Source: Candidatus Moraniibacteriota bacterium (lineage in GTDB: Bacteria > Patescibacteriota > Minisyncoccia > Moranbacterales > UBA2206). Taken from it: a DNA stretch of 64,000 bases. Positions 39,641 through 59,392 of the stretch are shown here, one piece after another (position 1 is the first letter of the stretch; every line of letters begins with the position of its first letter). Below the pieces are notes generated by a model. It had not been told where the DNA came from and did no database searches. It saw only the letters and a list, made by a program, of their open reading frames with translations. Where the stretch lies: positions 28,350 through 92,349 of the forward strand of contig JAAXWW010000005.1 of NCBI GenBank assembly GCA_013334765.1, given 5' to 3'. The translations under genes and the position numbers were made by a program.

Positions 39641-39647
39641 CTCAACT

Positions 39648-39673
39648 AAAAAATCTCCGCAAGGAGATTTTTT
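39648..39673. terminator. Bidirectional intrinsic terminator between convergent genes
   Basis: The sequence is AAAAAATCTCC-GCAA-GGAGATTTTTT. Confidence 0.6.
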
Positions 39674-39696
39674 AGTTCTATATTGCCGTTATCGAA

Positions 39697-40542
39697 TCAT
39701 TCCAGCCGTTTTCTGTTTCTGCCTGATGCCAAGAAATTATTTCCGGTCACTACGCTTTTTCCGGTTTTCTGTTCAAGCGCGGTTCTCGCGTCCTTAGCGA
39801 TCCTGCCGCCTTTTTTAGCTGGAACCTTATTCTCTTCCAAACCTTTCGCCTTCATTGTTTCGGCGATCTGCCGGGTCGAAAGTTCAGCCAGGGCTGTGAA
39901 GACCAATTCGGCGTCCGACATATGATCGCGCAGATTATGAGTCTTGAGTTTTTTCAGATTCTTATGCTCTTTGATGGTCAGGTCGCTCCATTCTTGATGG
40001 ATTATATTCGTCAGAATCGCGAATTCATCTTTCTCTTGAACATCGTTGTTTTTCCAATAGTCCGTCAATTTGTTCCTGACCTCCTGCCCCATCATCCTTT
40101 GCTGGATCCATTTCTCGCTCCGGCCCATCTTCAGCCAATATTCCCTCGAGCGATTCATCGCCTTTTCCGGATCTGACATTTCCTGAATTCGCTCATAGCC
40201 GACTTTCGCCAGCCACAGTTTGATCGGTTCGGCTTTTTTGGATGGAACCGATTGGATCAAGCGCAGAATCGTTTCGGTATTCGCAACATCAGTCTTATAG
40301 AATTTACCATCGGCAGATTGCAATTTCAGTTTGTCACATTTTGTGACAGACTCATTTCCTTCTTTTTTTAAGCGATTCTTAAGAGTTGTCCAATAACTTT
40401 GCGCTTTCTTGAAATCTTTCTGCTCAATCAACGCTGCCACGATATCGATCACCGAAAAATACCAAGTTTCGGTTTCTTCATCGTAGTGCCGGCGAATCTT
40501 GAAATTCTCAAAAATCGCCAATGAGTCCTTTTCCTTCGCCAT
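39697..40542 (-). CDS. DinD-like (DNA-damage-inducible protein D family) protein with an N-terminal Bro-N-like domain, paralogue 1
   Basis: The N-terminus AIFENFKIRRHYDEETETWYFSVIDIVAAL is Bro-N-like. The central KAEPIKLWLAKVGYERIQE and C-terminal KNLKKLKTHNLRDHMSDAELVFTALAELSTRQI parallel E. coli DinD (KGLKKNQKILDHMGSTELAANLF). Confidence 0.75.
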   Translation of the reverse strand: MAKEKDSLAIFENFKIRRHYDEETETWYFSVIDIVAALIEQKDFKKAQSYWTTLKNRLKKEGNESVTKCDKLKLQSADGKFYKTDVANTETILRLIQSVPSKKAEPIKLWLAKVGYERIQEMSDPEKAMNRSREYWLKMGRSEKWIQQRMMGQEVRNKLTDYWKNNDVQEKDEFAILTNIIHQEWSDLTIKEHKNLKKLKTHNLRDHMSDAELVFTALAELSTRQIAETMKAKGLEENKVPAKKGGRIAKDARTALEQKTGKSVVTGNNFLASGRNRKRLE

Positions 40543-40557
40543 GTTTTTATTTTATTT

Positions 40558-40586
40558 GGTTATAGTGATATCATATCACTATAACC
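40558..40586. promoter_or_regulatory. Perfect 14-bp-arm palindrome upstream of dinD-like paralogue 1 (putative operator)
   Basis: GGTTATAGTGATAT-C-ATATCACTATAACC lies 16-44 nt upstream of the start codon at 40542. Confidence 0.5.
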
Positions 40587-40626
40587 ATTTTCCGTCTACT
40601 ATCTCCGTCTCAGGCATTGATTTATT

Positions 40627-41571
40627 TCACTTCTTTTTCTTCTTCTTGTCTTTCGAGTCGCTTTCCGAGCTCGATGATGAGCTTGAGGAAGCGGAAGGAT
40701 TCTGGTCGTCCTGATTCATATCCTGCCCATCCTGACCCTTGAACTTATAGAAAACCTTGTTGTCAGCGCGAAGATCGACATATTCCAAATCCCCTCTCTT
40801 GTCCTTGCCTATCTTCTCATCGAGAACGATCCGAAGCATCTCGATCTCTTTCTCAGCATCGGCTTCCTCGTTGAAAAATATCTTCCATCCTTCCTTGGTC
40901 GTGACCCGGAGATCGGAGGAAACGCGGCTCGGGGTTTCCATTTCCCTTTCCAGATCGATATCAAGCCGGTCTTTCAAGCCGTCTTTTATCGCAAAAATGA
41001 AATCCATATAGTCCGTTCCGAGAATGTCGTTCTTCTGATCGATGCCGACCCCGCTCGTATCATTGAGAACAGCATAATCATCCTCTTTTATTTCCTCTCG
41101 GGAAAACATCCCTTTTGGAAAAAGCGAACCGTTGTCATCGACATAATAGCAGTCTCCGGAAGCGCAAAGGATCAGTTTCATTTCATGCTCGGCGACTGAT
41201 ATTTCAAGCGTATTGGGAAATTTCCTGACAATCTTAATGTTCCTTATCATATTGAACCTGGCTTTGATTTCATCCGCCATGCGGGCGCTTCTGAAAATGA
41301 TGATGTTGTCTTTCGGGATAAATCCCAGATATTTTCCGGATAATCCACCAGCAATCATCTCCCTCACGTCCGACTCGCTGATATTATGCGTTCCGCTTAT
41401 CCTTATTTCCGTCACATTCAGGAACGGAGAAAAAAACAGGACGAATACCGCCGCTCCCATGAAGCAAAGCAGGAAGAAATAGAAGAAGATCCTTTTCCAA
41501 TGGATCCTTCTGGGATTCCTGTCGGACATCCTTGACCCCGCCCTGGATTTTGATTTTCCCGGTTCAAGCAT
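40627..41571 (-). CDS. FtsQ/DivIB-like cell-division protein with a POTRA domain and a poly-Ser/poly-Lys tail
   Basis: An N-terminal TM is followed by VTEIRISGTHNISESDVREMI, which is POTRA-like. The C-terminus is SSSSSSSSESDSKDKKKKKK. Confidence 0.6.
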   Translation of the reverse strand: MLEPGKSKSRAGSRMSDRNPRRIHWKRIFFYFFLLCFMGAAVFVLFFSPFLNVTEIRISGTHNISESDVREMIAGGLSGKYLGFIPKDNIIIFRSARMADEIKARFNMIRNIKIVRKFPNTLEISVAEHEMKLILCASGDCYYVDDNGSLFPKGMFSREEIKEDDYAVLNDTSGVGIDQKNDILGTDYMDFIFAIKDGLKDRLDIDLEREMETPSRVSSDLRVTTKEGWKIFFNEEADAEKEIEMLRIVLDEKIGKDKRGDLEYVDLRADNKVFYKFKGQDGQDMNQDDQNPSASSSSSSSSESDSKDKKKKKK

Positions 41572-41576
41572 ATTGA

Positions 41577-42446
41577 TCAGATATTTATGAACATGTTTTC
41601 GAGAGCCAGGCGCGCGTTCGCGTTGGTATTGCCCATGATCGATTTCCCTCTGTCGATCAGGTCGATCATCCTGAGTGCGCGCGCGGGTGATATTCCCAAG
41701 ACATCGTTGCCAAGAACGGTTTGCCTCAAGAGAGCCGCCCAGATAGCCAGTTTTCGCGAAAGCGCCGCTTGGTCCTTCGCAAGGTTTTCAGCCAGATCGA
41801 ACCGGCCATTCAGGTCGGCCGATATGACATCCTTCAGCTGTTTCAGGATGTCACGATTCTCATCCAGGAGCGAACTGTCTTCGATCATTCTCTTTGCCCA
41901 GCCGGGACGCCCGAACGACCAGAAGATTATTTCTTCCCTGTCCTTCGCCGAACCGGCAAGCTCTGAGATCTCCTTGTCAGTCATGAGCGAGAACTTCTTC
42001 GTTTGGCAACGCGACACAACCGTCGGAAGGATCCTTTTCATATTGCTGACAATGAGAAACAGGACCGAATTTTCCGGCGGCTCCTCCAATATCTTAAGAA
42101 GCCCGTTCTGCGCCCCCTTGGTCAGGCGGTCGGCATCGTTTATGATGGCAATCATGTGCTTGCCATGGCCCGGAGTCGTGCCGAGCCTGCCTTGCAGTTC
42201 CCTGATTTCATCGATGCTGATATCTTTGACTTTTTCAACGCCTTTCGTTTCCTCTATCCTGGGTGAAAGGATGACCAAGTCAGGATCGATATTCGTGCCG
42301 ATGCCGTTTATTTCAGATGTTAAATCAAGAGCGAAAGTGAATTTGCCCACTGATTCCGGCCCGGTGAAAATATATGCCTGGCTGAGACTCTCCTTTTCCA
42401 GCGACCGCTTGAATCCGTTCCTTATTTTTTGATGACCGATGATCAT
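41577..42446 (-). CDS. holB: DNA polymerase III delta-prime subunit
   Basis: AAA+ clamp-loader fold with a degenerate P-loop AYIFTGPESVGKFT and an SRC-like VVSRCQ. Confidence 0.75.
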   Translation of the reverse strand: MIIGHQKIRNGFKRSLEKESLSQAYIFTGPESVGKFTFALDLTSEINGIGTNIDPDLVILSPRIEETKGVEKVKDISIDEIRELQGRLGTTPGHGKHMIAIINDADRLTKGAQNGLLKILEEPPENSVLFLIVSNMKRILPTVVSRCQTKKFSLMTDKEISELAGSAKDREEIIFWSFGRPGWAKRMIEDSSLLDENRDILKQLKDVISADLNGRFDLAENLAKDQAALSRKLAIWAALLRQTVLGNDVLGISPARALRMIDLIDRGKSIMGNTNANARLALENMFINI

Positions 42447-43600
42447 ATCCCAGATTTTTGCGCCTGATTTGCCGCTTTTATCTTTTCCAAATATTCCAAG
42501 ATGTTTTTCTTGAACTTCTCTTTCGAAAATTCGTTCGCCTTGTTCCTGATCGCTTCCCTGTCGTAGCCTTTCTCGTTTTCAATGAATCTCCTCACTCCGT
42601 CAGCGATCACTTCCGGAACCGATGAGGCAAAGAACTCTCCCGTCTTGCCCTCGACAATCACTTCTCTCATGCCGCCTTTCCTGATCGAAAGGACCGGAAC
42701 GCCATATGACATAGCCTCGACCGGTGCGATTCCGAAATCATCCACTCCCGGAAAAACGAAGGCGCGCGCATTGCTATATATCTCTCCCAGCTTTTCATCC
42801 GGAACGAACCCGGCGAAACGTATATTCTTCCCAGCAATCGATTTCAGGTATTTTTCCTGTTCGCCTGTCCCGACCACCACCAGTGGCAGCTCCAGCTTAT
42901 TGAAAGCCTCGATTGCCGCGTCGACCTTCTTGTATGCCGACAGGCGGGAAACGATGAGGAAATAATTATCCTTGATGTCTCCTGCTCCTTGCTTGCCCAC
43001 CGTAGTCCCGCTTAGCGGGACGAAGGCGGGTGGATAAATGACTTCGGAATCCCTGCCATAATATTTCCTGATACGGTCCCGGGTATATATCGAATTGGAA
43101 AGCAGAAGATCCGGCCTATCGGAAGCGACGCGGTCCCAGACGCGGATATAGTTGAGGATGAAGCGGGTGATGAAGCGTATGCATCCCAAGCGGCTCCTTT
43201 GATTGAGATATTCCCCATTCATGTCCCAGATGAAGCGCATCGGGCTGTGGACATATGAGACGTGGGTCGTGTTGAGGCGCGTCACGATCCCCTTTGACCA
43301 CGCTCCGGAGCTCGAAATGACCAGATCGAAATCCCTCAGATCGAAAGTCTCCGGCGCGACCGGGAGGAACGGCAGCAGCCATTTCTTCCTCTTCTTGAGA
43401 AAGGCGGGAAATTTCTGCAGGAAGGAAACACGCACGTCCTTTGATCCGAATCTCTCCCCTAAGGCATTTTTGTCATATATGAGGGTATATATCGGCGCGT
43501 CCGGAAAAATCTCAGACAGAGCCAGAAGGACCCTTTCTGCTCCTCCGAACTGAGTCAGGAAATCATGCACCAAGGCTATTTTCAATTCTTTTTTGTTCAT
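42443..43600 (-). CDS. GT4-family glycosyltransferase
   Basis: The GT-B C-terminal motif is FVFPGVDDFGIAPVEAMSYGVPVL (E-x7-E). Confidence 0.85.
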   Translation of the reverse strand: MNKKELKIALVHDFLTQFGGAERVLLALSEIFPDAPIYTLIYDKNALGERFGSKDVRVSFLQKFPAFLKKRKKWLLPFLPVAPETFDLRDFDLVISSSGAWSKGIVTRLNTTHVSYVHSPMRFIWDMNGEYLNQRSRLGCIRFITRFILNYIRVWDRVASDRPDLLLSNSIYTRDRIRKYYGRDSEVIYPPAFVPLSGTTVGKQGAGDIKDNYFLIVSRLSAYKKVDAAIEAFNKLELPLVVVGTGEQEKYLKSIAGKNIRFAGFVPDEKLGEIYSNARAFVFPGVDDFGIAPVEAMSYGVPVLSIRKGGMREVIVEGKTGEFFASSVPEVIADGVRRFIENEKGYDREAIRNKANEFSKEKFKKNILEYLEKIKAANQAQKSGI

Positions 43601-44412
43601 TCCAGCGGGCTTTTTATGTTTTTTAGCATCGGATTGGTCACTTTGGTATAGATCTGCGTTGTCCTAATATTAGCATGACCCAGAAGTTCCTGCACATAAC
43701 GGACGTCCACCCCGTTTTCAAGCAAATGCGTCGCGAAACTGTGACGCAAGGAATGGAAAGTGGCCGTTTTTTTGATCCCCGCTTTTTTGAGCGCGTTTTC
43801 AAAAACCTTCTGGGCTGTTCGTTCGGTCAGTTTGCCTCCCCTTTCACTGCCAAAAACATAGTCATTCAAATTTTTGCTTCCGATTATTTTTCCCAAATCC
43901 CCAGCCAGCTTTTCCGGGAAAACGGTTATGCGGTCATTATTGCCCTTGGCTCCTTTGATATGGATCGTCAACTCCTGCAAGCCGATATCTTTTACTTTCA
44001 AATTAACAACTTCGCTGACTCGCAAGCCGCCGGAATATGCCAGCGCAATCATCAGCCTATGTTTCTCATTGCTTATGGATCCCAGAAGCACCCTGATTTC
44101 ATCCCTGGACAGCACGATCGGCAGCTTGCTCGGAGTTTTGGCGAATCTGATATCGATTTTCCCCTGATATTTCAAAACACTCCGACAAAAGAAATTGATC
44201 GCTTGCAGGCTCTGATTGACTGTCTGCGAAGACATCCCTTTGTCAATTTTGATCAAGAGGTGTTTCTTGATGAAATCCTCATCCACTGAATCGAATCCGC
44301 ACCGCTTTTCACGCAAATAGTCCGCCACGCAAGCAACATAGCTTCTGACTGTTTTAGGGCTATACTTCCTCAATCTCAATTCATCCTCCAGTTTTTTCAA
44401 ATAGACCTCCAT
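43597..44412 (-). CDS. Tyrosine site-specific recombinase, XerC/XerD family
   Basis: The catalytic residues are RVSEV, HSLRHSFATHLL and LLGHANIRTTQIYTKV (R...H-x-x-R...Y). Confidence 0.9.
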   Translation of the reverse strand: MEVYLKKLEDELRLRKYSPKTVRSYVACVADYLREKRCGFDSVDEDFIKKHLLIKIDKGMSSQTVNQSLQAINFFCRSVLKYQGKIDIRFAKTPSKLPIVLSRDEIRVLLGSISNEKHRLMIALAYSGGLRVSEVVNLKVKDIGLQELTIHIKGAKGNNDRITVFPEKLAGDLGKIIGSKNLNDYVFGSERGGKLTERTAQKVFENALKKAGIKKTATFHSLRHSFATHLLENGVDVRYVQELLGHANIRTTQIYTKVTNPMLKNIKSPLE

Positions 44413-44484
44413 TGGGATATTTGATATAATTAAATCACAATAAAATTATACATAATATTCTCAAATGCAACAATATTATGCATA

Positions 44485-44707
44485 CTATGCGAAAACACTT
44501 CGCATATGGAAGAGTTATTCAAAATGTCGCGCGCTACGCTTGCTCCATTTTGAATAACGTGCAGCTATGCGAAGGGGCTATGCGCAAAGAAAAAAGATTG
44601 TCTTTATCAATCGCGCGCGCCACTTCGTATAACTACCGCTATACGGCTGACGCCCAAATCCCGACTCCGCTCCGCTCCGTCGGGACTTCGCATAGCTGCA
44701 CGTTATA
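44485..44707. repeat. Inverted-repeat-rich non-coding element between xer and the DUF218 gene
   Basis: AATAACGTGCAGCTATGCGAAG (44553-44574) and CTTCGCATAGCTGCACGTTATA (44686-44707) match at 21 of 22 positions as an inverted repeat. Nested hairpins are TATGCGAA-AACAC-TTCGCATA (44485-44505) and TCCCGAC...GTCGGGA (44659-44685). The motif GCTATGCG recurs. Confidence 0.5.
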
Positions 44708-44729
44708 TGAAATTTCACCCCTCCTCACT

Positions 44730-45377
44730 ATGATAAATAAACAAACATTTGAATTAGCAAACAAGTTGTGGGATTACCACCACGTTAATCAATCTCTTGA
44801 AAAATCTGATTGCATTTTAGTTCTGGGTAGTCATGATTTGAGGGTCGCCGAAAGAGGCGCGGAATTATATCTTCGAGGATTGGCACCTATTATAATTTTT
44901 TCTGGTGGCCTTGGAAATTTTACAAAAGAAATTTGGGATGAGTCTGAAGCTGACAAGTTCACAACTATTGCTATGAATATGGGAGTTCCGCGTGATGCAA
45001 TTTTGATTGAGAATAAATCAACGAACACTGGCGAAAATATTTTGTTTACGCAAAAGTTGCTAAAGGAAAATGGCCTTGATCCGCAAAGTTTTATCGTTGT
45101 GCAAAAACCGTATATGGAAAGAAGGAGCTATGCGACATTCAAAAAACATTGGCCTGACAAAAAACTTGCGGTCACATCGCCCCAAATTTCTTTTGAAAAA
45201 TACTACAATGATGAAATTCCGCTTGAAAAGGTGATAAATATCATGGTCGGCGACTTACAAAGAATTAAAATATACCCAGAAAAAGGATTTCAGATTTTTC
45301 AAGAGATACCAAATGAAGTGTGGTCTGCATATGAACAACTTGTTAGTCTGGGGTACGACAAACATTTAGTGAAATAA
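44730..45377 (+). CDS. DUF218 (YdcF/ElyC/SanA-like) domain protein
   Basis: CILVLGSHD...YLRGLAPIIIFSGGLG is the DUF218 core. The start is taken at MINKQTF. The upstream 252 nt of the track ORF is the inverted-repeat element and is not protein-like. Confidence 0.7.
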   Translation: MINKQTFELANKLWDYHHVNQSLEKSDCILVLGSHDLRVAERGAELYLRGLAPIIIFSGGLGNFTKEIWDESEADKFTTIAMNMGVPRDAILIENKSTNTGENILFTQKLLKENGLDPQSFIVVQKPYMERRSYATFKKHWPDKKLAVTSPQISFEKYYNDEIPLEKVINIMVGDLQRIKIYPEKGFQIFQEIPNEVWSAYEQLVSLGYDKHLVK

Positions 45378-45637
45378 ACCGGAGGGGTGAAACATCATAT
45401 AACAAAGAATATCTGGCTCCAAAATTTTTCACTTTTATATTTTCAGATGAAAGAAAAATTTTTTCGACCCAAATTCATTTCCGCTACGCTACAATGAACT
45501 TCAGATATTCTTAACGTTGTCGGAAATAAAATTCTTTTCTTTTCCCATACGATCAAAGCATTGTTCAGGGAAAATATCCGGTTGCAATTTTCTGCGAAAG
45601 ACCCGCCTAATTCCGTCATTTTTGACGGTTTTTGTAA

Positions 45638-45658
45638 ATAGTGATACACTATCACTAT
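45638..45658. promoter_or_regulatory. Palindrome upstream of dinD-like paralogue 2 (same core as at 40558)
   Basis: ATAGTGATA-CAC-TATCACTAT lies 21-41 nt upstream of the ATG at 45679. It shares the TAGTGATA/TATCACTA core with the paralogue 1 site. Confidence 0.5.
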
Positions 45659-45678
45659 AATAAATATAGCTTGCACAA

Positions 45679-46509
45679 ATGAACAACACAAACAGCCACA
45701 TCGCCATCTTCGAAGGAAAATCCATCAGGAAAATCATCTATCAGAATGAGTGGTGGTTTTCGGTGGTTGATGTTTGCATGGTTCTTACTGGTAGTCCAGA
45801 CCCAGGGGCCTATTGGAGGAAGTTAAAACAACGGCTAATAGCCGAAGGAGGTGAAGTCGTGACATTTTGTCACGGGTTGAAATTGCCAGCTCCGGACGGT
45901 AAAATGAGGGAGACTGATTGCGCCAACACTGAAGGAATGTTCAGAATCATCCAATCAATCCCCTCGCCCAAAGCCGAGCCATTGAAGCGTTGGCTAGCTA
46001 AAGTCGGTTATGAGCGTATTCAAGAGGTAGAAAATCCCGAATTAGCAACAAAAAGAACCAGGATGCTTTACAAACTCAAGGGATATCCTGAAGACTGGAT
46101 CGAAAAACGAATGCGCGGTATCGCTATCCGGGAAGAACTGACTGAAGAATGGAATAAACGCGGAGCAGAAACCGATCGGGATTATGAGATTCTAACCGCA
46201 GAAATTTCACAGGCGACTTTTGGAATGAAGCCGAGTGAATACAAGAAACTAAAAGGATTGAAACGAGAGAATCTTCGCGATCATATGGACGACTTCGAAT
46301 TGATCCTTACCATGTTGGGCGAAAGAACTACTACTGAAATACATAAAACCAGGGATTCCAAGGGATTGCCGCGACTCAAAGATGATGCTCGCAGAGGCGG
46401 ATCAGTTGCCGGAACCGCCAGAAAACAAATCGAAAGACAAATAGGCAGACCGGTGGTTTCAAAAAACAATTTCTTGAAACAGAAAAACGACAAAGGATTG
46501 AAGAAATAA
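45679..46509 (+). CDS. DinD-like/Bro-N domain protein, paralogue 2
   Basis: IAIFEGKSIRKIIYQNEWWFSVVDVCMVL, AEPLKRWLAKVGYERIQE and KKLKGLKRENLRDHMDDFELILTMLGERTTTEI match the DinD family. It is collinear with paralogue 1. Confidence 0.75.
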   Translation: MNNTNSHIAIFEGKSIRKIIYQNEWWFSVVDVCMVLTGSPDPGAYWRKLKQRLIAEGGEVVTFCHGLKLPAPDGKMRETDCANTEGMFRIIQSIPSPKAEPLKRWLAKVGYERIQEVENPELATKRTRMLYKLKGYPEDWIEKRMRGIAIREELTEEWNKRGAETDRDYEILTAEISQATFGMKPSEYKKLKGLKRENLRDHMDDFELILTMLGERTTTEIHKTRDSKGLPRLKDDARRGGSVAGTARKQIERQIGRPVVSKNNFLKQKNDKGLKK

Positions 46510-55878: not shown

Positions 55879-55998
55879 GTTCCCAGCATTGTCCTACTCT
55901 TCCCCCGCCTGAGCGGGGATACCATCGGTGCTGATAAGCTTAACGGCCGAGTTCGGTATGGGATCGGGTGTTTCCTTATCGCTAGAAACACTGGGAAC
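55879..55998 (-). rRNA. rrf: 5S ribosomal RNA
   Basis: The reverse complement reads TTCCCAGTG...CCCGATCCCATACCGAACTCGGCCGTTAAGC...CACCGATGGTATCCCCG...GGGGAAGAGTAGGACAATGCTGGGAA with helix I pairing. The ends are approximate. Confidence 0.85.
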
Positions 55999-56239
55999 GA
56001 TACATTCAAAAAGTGCTTAGAATGCCTTGATCACAGGAGAGAAAAACATGAATGATGCAATGGCAATCAGGATAACAAAAAACACGGCTGATATGAACTT
56101 CAAATTATCAGTATACCTTTTCATAAGTGACTTTTTTAGTAACTGTTAACTGCTAACCGAATCATACCATATATCATGAAACACCGCACATGAGACTTGC
56201 GCCTCATATAAAGTGCTCCACGTTATATGGAAAATAAGA

Positions 56240-59392
<3,153 letters not shown>

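Follow-up and report, generated by a model that had tools for sequence, protein, structure and literature searches.

The window analysed here, a 64,000-nt stretch of contig JAAXWW010000005.1 from a Candidatus Moraniibacteriota assembly, is a chromosomal piece of a bacterium of the candidate phyla radiation (CPR), with 47% G+C. It carries two paralogous genes with Bro-N domains, and these genes and the palindrome in front of each are the subject of this report. An earlier analysis made from the letters alone (the sequence-only reading) had placed the two genes on opposite strands, pointing away from each other, and both open reading frames (ORFs) were confirmed at the positions given below. The proteins share 46% identity across 265 aa (E=2e-77). 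The Bro-N-like N-domain that had been assigned to each was likewise borne out, as both exceed the gathering cut-off of 25.6 bits for Pfam Bro-N (PF02498), with 30.8 bits for paralogue 1 (E=4.5e-7) and 48.0 bits for paralogue 2 (E=2e-12). Paralogue 2 is identical (100%) to protein NTU67060.1 of a Candidatus Moranbacteria metagenome-assembled genome (MAG). The divergent pair does enclose about 5 kb (40543-45678), as had been pointed out, but this bracket has no evident functional meaning. The genes and palindromes are as follows.

39697-40542, minus strand: paralogue 1, an ORF of 281 aa with a Bro-N N-domain, matching PHROG 15286 and the PADLOC candidate PDC-S13
40558-40586, minus strand: predicted operator 1, GGTTATAGTGATAT-C-ATATCACTATAACC, part of perfect arms of 15 nt that span 40557-40587
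45638-45658, plus strand: predicted operator 2, ATAGTGATA-CAC-TATCACTAT, with its core at 45639-45657
45679-46509, plus strand: paralogue 2, an ORF of 276 aa with a Bro-N N-domain, matching PHROG 15286 and the PADLOC candidate PDC-S13

Both palindromes are exact instances of ATAGTGATA-N3-TATCACTAT, with the same spacer length of 3 nt, at 40562-40582 and 45638-45658, and they share a palindromic core of 19 bp. In operator 1, which lies within the 84-nt gap between an ftsQ-like gene and paralogue 1, this core reads TAGTGATA-TCA-TATCACTA (40563-40581). The ATG of each paralogue starts 20-21 nt past the end of the core, TATCACTA, which agrees with the earlier statement that a palindrome stands close upstream of each start codon. 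The second palindrome was found exactly as described, CAC spacer included; for the first, the coordinates held and the arm length did not, being 15 nt of perfect match rather than 14. The full pattern occurs twice in the window, against an expectation of 0.00-0.01 from shuffled sequence, and the octamer TAGTGATA occurs six times against 0.59 expected. We also scored the window with a position weight matrix (PWM) built solely from sites upstream of lexA genes in other genomes, so that neither window site was in the training set. Operator 1 scored 32.2 bits and operator 2 scored 28.3 bits, compared with a training median of 27.4 bits, and the best position elsewhere in the window reached 2.6 bits.

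It is conceivable that the palindromes have no regulatory role and are AT-rich dyads that arose by chance, intrinsic terminators, or recombination sites that remained after a gene was duplicated together with its upstream region. Palindrome 1 can form a hairpin of 14 pairs, marked as terminator-like when the plus strand is read, and the upstream regions of the two paralogues show 73% identity across 41 nt, a similarity that paralogy could have left by inheritance. Against this, 18 palindromic bases are identical between the two sites even though the proteins share only 46% of their residues and the spacers and flanks differ. The same motif also stands at a fixed distance before unrelated genes in many genomes, and chance predicts close to no occurrences. 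We consider a nonregulatory origin highly improbable. The terminator reading of palindrome 1 in particular was rejected, as the hairpin on the gene strand is followed by an A-rich rather than a T-rich tract.

The PWM sites belong to a LexA homologue of 221 aa found in related genomes, which together contributed ~200 loci to the comparison. Eighty metagenomic loci (L119-L198) were fetched by the LexA-homologue protein alone, with no selection on the motif. A box with at most 3 mismatches was present within 200 nt upstream of lexA in 64 of the 78 loci with usable upstream sequence, and a PWM match was present in 68 of 76. Across 583 kb of these loci there were 73 such box matches, compared with 4.75 in shuffled sequence, and 74 of 79 core matches precede lexA. 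In the same loci the PWM found no match at the promoters of ftsA, ftsZ, nrdR, nrdD, nrdG, or uvrB (0 of 13-28 each). LexA autoregulation usually shows itself in just this way, by a box conserved upstream of lexA. In some lexA promoters, such as those of L164, L169, and L195, two boxes overlap at a spacing of 14-17 nt. The genes ftsA-ftsZ, nrdR-nrdD-nrdG, and uvrB are syntenic with the lexA homologue, and this conserved housekeeping neighborhood indicates that the repressor gene is chromosomal and not borne by a prophage.

The 221-aa protein, for which 588 homologues were found, is a divergent LexA homologue. It matches Peptidase_S24 (E=4e-17) and LexA_DNA_bind (E=2e-4), aligns over its full length with TIGR00498 (85.0 and 83.6 bits), and has full-length LexA, including E. 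coli LexA structures, as its best matches in the PDB. Among 20 sequences of the homologue, S136 (in GDSM), the catalytic K175, and C97-G98 (in the motif GLASCGEAL) are invariant. Cys97-Gly98 is the putative self-cleavage site, and Cys-Gly is also the site at which UmuD is cleaved. The S24 cleavage signature has been cited as Ala-Gly (PMC8565304), in place of which the LexA of this clade has its invariant Cys-Gly.

The boxes overlap the predicted core promoters of their target genes, as judged from consensus matches. In the window, the promoter-like sites are as follows.

40570-40598, minus strand: promoter-like site of paralogue 1, TAGACG-17-TATGAT with TG before the -10 element, 9 of 12 matches in the consensus scan
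45622-45661, plus strand: two overlapping promoter-like sites of paralogue 2 from the consensus scan
45622-45650, plus strand: the first of these, TTGACG-17-TACACT with TG upstream of the -10 element
45632-45661, plus strand: the second, TTGTAA-18-TATAAT

The -10 hexamer TATGAT of the paralogue 1 site is the center of operator 1, which on the gene strand reads TG-a-TATGAT and thus resembles an extended -10 element. The center of operator 2 reads TG-a-TACACT, while TATAAT (45656-45661) overlaps its 3' end, and both promoter readings for paralogue 2 place the spacer and the -10 element beneath the operator. This layout agrees with the consensus of 63 lexA-upstream sites, which has TTGA, within a TTGACA-like -35 element, 16-17 nt upstream; a perfect TTGACA stands 16-19 nt upstream in 25 of the 63. 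The information-rich core of the lexA-upstream sites is aGTGaTAtwaTAtCACt, and the consensus of the predicted operator is TTAT-AGTGATA-TWA-TATCACT-ATAA. Read in the direction of the gene, 27 of the 63 lexA sites have TAA as their central triplet, as do 20 of the 31 CPR sites among the matches listed from the genome scan described below. With this mostly TAA triplet the center of the operator reads TGnTATAAT, an extended -10 element, so that a bound repressor would occlude RNA polymerase. As the operator spans the extended -10 element and the likely transcription start, the gap of about 20 nt to the ATG would be a short leader.

Taken together, these results lead us to regard the palindromes as probable LexA (SOS) boxes of a Moranbacteria/Parcubacteria lineage of Patescibacteria. 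The proposal that one dimeric repressor controls both genes gains support from the concentration of the box upstream of lexA, from its recurrence in related genomes, and from the promoter overlap. In the mechanism that we propose, a LexA dimer on the operator would cover the -10 element and the transcription start, and both Bro-N paralogues would be off. DNA damage would then lead to RecA-stimulated self-cleavage of LexA, by way of the Cys-Gly site and the Ser/Lys dyad, and the operator would be freed. Both paralogues would be switched on together with a small regulon that may comprise lexA, dinD orthologues, mgsA/rarA, rmuC, dinB, and many genes for Bro-N, KilA-N, AntA, ORF6N, and RhuM proteins. 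The repression and induction steps are modeled on the established behavior of LexA.

A scan of species-representative genomes (one per species, 596 Gb) for an exact match to the 16 specified bases gave at least 118 loci, where an arithmetic estimate puts chance matches in a collection of that size at roughly a hundred. The counts and genes that follow are among the matches listed. Their distribution is uneven: CPR labels (Patescibacteria, Parcubacteria, or Moraniibacteriota) apply to 37 of them, and single MAGs of ~1 Mb hold 2-5 exact sites each. An ORF starts 10-45 nt downstream at 32 of the 37 CPR loci versus 16 of 68 loci in other phyla. The start lies at 15-30 nt for 26 of 34 CPR sites, with a modal distance of 19-23 nt, and the exact box stands ~20 nt upstream of dinD orthologues, rmuC, and mgsA/rarA in related MAGs. 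The box is thus a recurrent signal of one lineage. The nonrandom occurrence and promoter bias that the sequence-only reading would lead one to expect are seen both in the window counts and in this fixed distance to the ATG. The genes and families found downstream are listed here.

L021, L073, L076, L116: the 221-aa LexA homologue
L029, L046, L047, L069, L091, L105: orthologues of paralogues 1 and 2
L054, L094, L097, L107: true DinD orthologues, with 50-52% identity to E. coli DinD
L057, L067, L096, L104: MgsA/RarA
L089: dinB, with the box 168 nt upstream
Other loci: rmuC
Other loci: RhuM, RhuM-Fic, KilA-N, AntA, and ORF6N proteins
Other loci: a PD-(D/E)XK nuclease gene, divergent from lexA
Other loci: Dam and N6/N4 methylases, an NYN protein, and an SDH-type protease

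The makeup of this list raises the question of whether the Bro-N-type proteins themselves bind the palindrome, regulating their own promoters or acting on one another's, with lexA merely one more target. The N-domains of Bro-N, KilA-N, AntA, ORF6N, and RhuM proteins are DNA-binding modules, and genes of this superfamily are strikingly enriched after exact sites among the matches listed; several genomes also have at least two such genes, with a box before every one. However, the box is most consistent at lexA, and it also precedes the unrelated genes for MgsA, RmuC, DinB, the Dam methylase, the NYN protein, and the SDH protease. A single 17-bp specificity is unlikely to be common to five structurally different N-domains, and in other CPR lineages the promoters of window-family orthologues are plain and lack the box. 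We therefore hold binding by the Bro-N-type proteins to be improbable, and prefer LexA as the predicted binder.

Several individual loci deserve mention. Contig JBAZBJ010000009.1, from a Parcubacteria MAG, carries two paralogues of the window Bro-N family (L029 and L046), each with a box, so that the pattern of a pair with the same operator recurs. At L043, a RhuM-Fic fusion follows the same box. MAGs labeled "uncultured Bdellovibrionales" (L009, L013, L026, L058, L069, and L105) show the same box, distance, and gene families, and the L058 protease has almost the same amino acid sequence as the one in Parcubacteria L030. Nucleotide comparison of the loci with this label to the CPR loci gave no matches. 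These occurrences could be mislabeled bins or a shared regulon.

It is also important to point out what weighs against a LexA/SOS assignment. Neither a lexA gene nor any other S24 gene was found in the 64-kb window, and that the source genome encodes LexA is assumed from its relatives. With the two scores given above, the LexA homologue does not reach the equivalog cut-off of TIGR00498 (110.95 bits). The predicted regulon is noncanonical and has uvrB outside it, as the PWM found the box at none of 15 uvrB promoters in the lexA-homologue loci. E. coli RecA gave no tblastn match in the window or in any of the fetched loci. When five orthologues of the window family were picked regardless of the motif, only one had the box: P0142, from Moranbacteria, has TAATGATATAATATCACTA before its ATG, while P0154, P0128, and P0137 have plain promoters that lack it, and P0158 follows its preceding gene after a gap of 28 nt in which no promoter was identified. 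Regulation of the Bro-N gene by the box would thus be restricted to a lineage and not general. A box that is a lineage-specific addition is as expected for the regulon of a transcription factor. Lastly, a different factor, one that controls lexA as well, could in principle occupy the palindrome; LexA as the binder and DNA-damage induction of the two genes are what we infer from the sequence evidence.

One part of the sequence-only reading holds only weakly, namely, the assignment of a DinD-like C-domain to the two paralogues. The NCBIfam DinD model NF008573, which scores E. coli DinD at 488 bits, matched neither paralogue at E<=0.01. BLASTP matches to E. coli DinD were marginal: paralogue 2 reached E=0.001 over ~76 aa, paralogue 1 gave E=0.37, and what resemblance there is lies within ~60-76 C-terminal residues. 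When profiles of the window family and of true DinD were compared by hhalign, the probability was 5%, and DinD membership was rejected. E. coli DinD has a Bro-N match of its own. The paralogues thus lie outside the DinD family, which they resemble only in having a Bro-N domain and, weakly, in the C-terminal part, and the annotation is corrected: the two genes are not dinD.

The families that the proteins do match are less familiar ones. Both paralogues match phrog_15286 over their full length (E=2.8e-90 and 2e-88) and the PADLOC model PDC-S13 over ~270 of its 286 positions (E=9e-119 and 1e-117); the Bro-N region has weaker matches to phage anti-repressor Ant families. PHROG 15286 carries the annotation "unknown function"; PDC-S13 is a candidate single-gene defense protein from a library that covers known and candidate defense systems, and a literature search for "PDC-S13" returned nothing. 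Members of the window Bro-N family (P0121-P0240) share 76-89% identity among MAGs labeled Patescibacteria, Deltaproteobacteria, Planctomycetota, Syntrophorhabdus, and WOR-1. For a comparison across phyla this conservation is unusually high, and it fits horizontal spread. An AlphaFold model of paralogue 2, built from an alignment of 16 sequences, was unusable (pLDDT 42, pTM 0.27), and a search of solved structures with the window family gave no matches.

These matches, and the tyrosine recombinase and cassette-like hairpins that adjoin paralogue 2, could also suggest that the palindrome is the operator of a CI/Cro-type repressor from a phage or mobile element, and that the paralogues are antirepressor modules of integrated elements. 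The surroundings of the two genes argue otherwise. Both lie among ftsQ-like, holB, glycosyltransferase, and mreB genes; a search of the window ORFs and their domains found no phage structural or replication genes near either paralogue, and no helix-turn-helix repressor gene is adjacent to them. Among repressor-type genes, the LexA homologue alone has the box consistently; it looks single copy and sits in a conserved housekeeping neighborhood. We consider an operator of this phage type quite improbable. The sequence-only reading had left the choice between a lineage-specific SOS-like operator and a phage-type one; the SOS-like half is favored by the box before lexA, and the phage-type half is disfavored by the chromosomal synteny and the lack of phage genes.

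Paralogue 2 also has a context that resembles an integron. The features concerned are as follows.

43597-44412, minus strand: tyrosine recombinase, with integron integrases as its best NCBIfam matches
44552-44708: attC-like hairpin 1, long and imperfect, with AAC...GTT ends
45397-45522: attC-like hairpin 2, long and imperfect, with AAC...GTT ends

The recombinase scores 214 bits against TIGR02249, for which the cut-off is 265, and its alignment falls into two stretches that leave out the central part of the model; the IntI-specific insertion is missing. Paralogue 2 lies 1.3 kb away in divergent orientation. The two hairpins flank a low-G+C DUF218 gene whose true start is likely at 44730, and paralogue 2 comes directly after the second hairpin. 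Other CPR genomes have hairpins of the same type upstream of their paralogue 2 orthologues (L199, L209, L213, and L214), and CGCTACGCT is found in many of the hairpin loops. Their positions are as follows.

L199, 2834-2911: hairpin with textbook attC core sites, GCCTAAC/GTTAGGC
L209, 1022-1163, 1672-1821, and 2246-2394: array of three hairpins beside an rve transposase
L213, 993-1134, and L214, 1660-1759: one hairpin each

This looks like an attC-type cassette architecture in which a predicted LexA-controlled promoter lies inside the cassette, and it suggests that the Bro-N/PDC-S13 gene moves about in cassette form. A possible attC-like cassette context is thereby flagged for a protein family that is ~80% identical across phyla. 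SOS-controlled integrons, reportedly described by Guerin et al. in 2009 with a LexA box at the intI promoter, offer a comparison. Like them, the present locus combines a (predicted) LexA box with cassette-type recombination sites; unlike them, it has the box before the putative cassette gene and not before the recombinase. A LexA box at the recombinase promoter was considered and rejected (PWM score -0.7 at 44419-44443).

Other known systems bear comparison as well. The dinD gene of E. coli belongs to the SOS regulon and is controlled by LexA, whose operator in that species is CTGT-N8-ACAG. The genes studied here resemble it in encoding Bro-N proteins of ~275 aa with a palindromic, in this case predicted, LexA operator at the promoter, and true DinD orthologues in Moranbacteria-type MAGs share the box of the window genes. 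The differences are that the paralogues are not of the DinD family and that the motif is AGTGATA-N3-TATCACT, which upholds the earlier remark that it is not the classical LexA box. The Tum protein of coliphage 186 is a LexA-controlled antirepressor, and phage systems of this kind also have an antirepressor-like gene directly behind a host LexA box, which here is predicted, so that the gene comes on upon DNA damage. Unlike phage antirepressor genes, the paralogues lie among housekeeping genes with no prophage or cognate phage repressor seen nearby. LexA-controlled antirepressors are likewise described for the Gifsy prophages of Salmonella (PMC3121763).

LexA motifs are known to vary between phyla, with 17 motifs reported, and include noncanonical ones such as TTAC-N3-GTAA in Bdellovibrio and those of Bacteroidetes (PMC8565304). 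The present motif is like these in being a short dyad with a small spacer that is recognized first by its conservation upstream of lexA, and the repressors have the S24 Ser/Lys residues in common. It differs in its half-site and in a regulon that lacks uvrB and is dominated by Bro-N-like genes. For Patescibacteria, the superphylum concerned here, Sanchez-Osuna, Barbe and Erill (2017, Environ Microbiol 19:3465) reportedly used comparative genomics to derive the LexA motif and the regulon of the SOS network. No link between a GTGATA dyad and LexA was found in the literature searched, to which the 2017 study itself did not belong, and papers citing that study state no motif. If that study reports AGTGATA-N3-TATCACT for this clade, then the operator is already known.

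Two further features of the window stand apart from the regulatory question. A perfect inverted repeat of 15 nt with a 4-nt loop (AACTAAAAAATCTCC GCAA GGAGATTTTTTAGTT, 39644-39677) separates paralogue 1 from a convergent gene for a 615-aa PMT_2 (glycosyltransferase-type) protein, and it looks like a bidirectional intrinsic terminator. Genes for 23S and 5S rRNA lie at 55881-59382. The 23S match is 3,146 nt long against a model of 2,925 positions, a surplus of ~220 bases, and the 4.6 kb upstream of it, as far as the edge of the window, contain no 16S rRNA. Linkage of the rRNA genes may be lacking, or an insertion may be present in the 23S gene, as CPR bacteria are often reported to show.

The kind of system proposed here, a LexA operator on a promoter, is ordinary, and it is the sequence that is unfamiliar. 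For bacteria beyond the reach of culture, the box of 17-19 bp offers a concrete regulatory code that can be put to the test, since it would predict the damage-induced genes of a Moranbacteria-type cell. The predicted regulon is small and odd, with lexA, dinD, dinB, rmuC, and mgsA beside a crowd of phage-antirepressor-like and defense-candidate genes, and no uvrB. A much more far-reaching version is one that we put forward tentatively, as a minority prospect: that AGTGATA-N3-TATCACT is an undescribed LexA motif doubling as an extended -10 element, and that the SOS regulon of Moranbacteria-type CPR bacteria is an unusual one, with little excision repair and composed mostly of mobile, cassette-borne antirepressor-like or defense-candidate genes (Bro-N/PDC-S13, KilA-N, AntA, ORF6N, and RhuM-Fic), some of whose cassettes may carry their own LexA-controlled promoter. 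The predicted regulon hints at an SOS signal that, in episymbionts as tiny as these, may largely steer functions related to phages or mobile elements.

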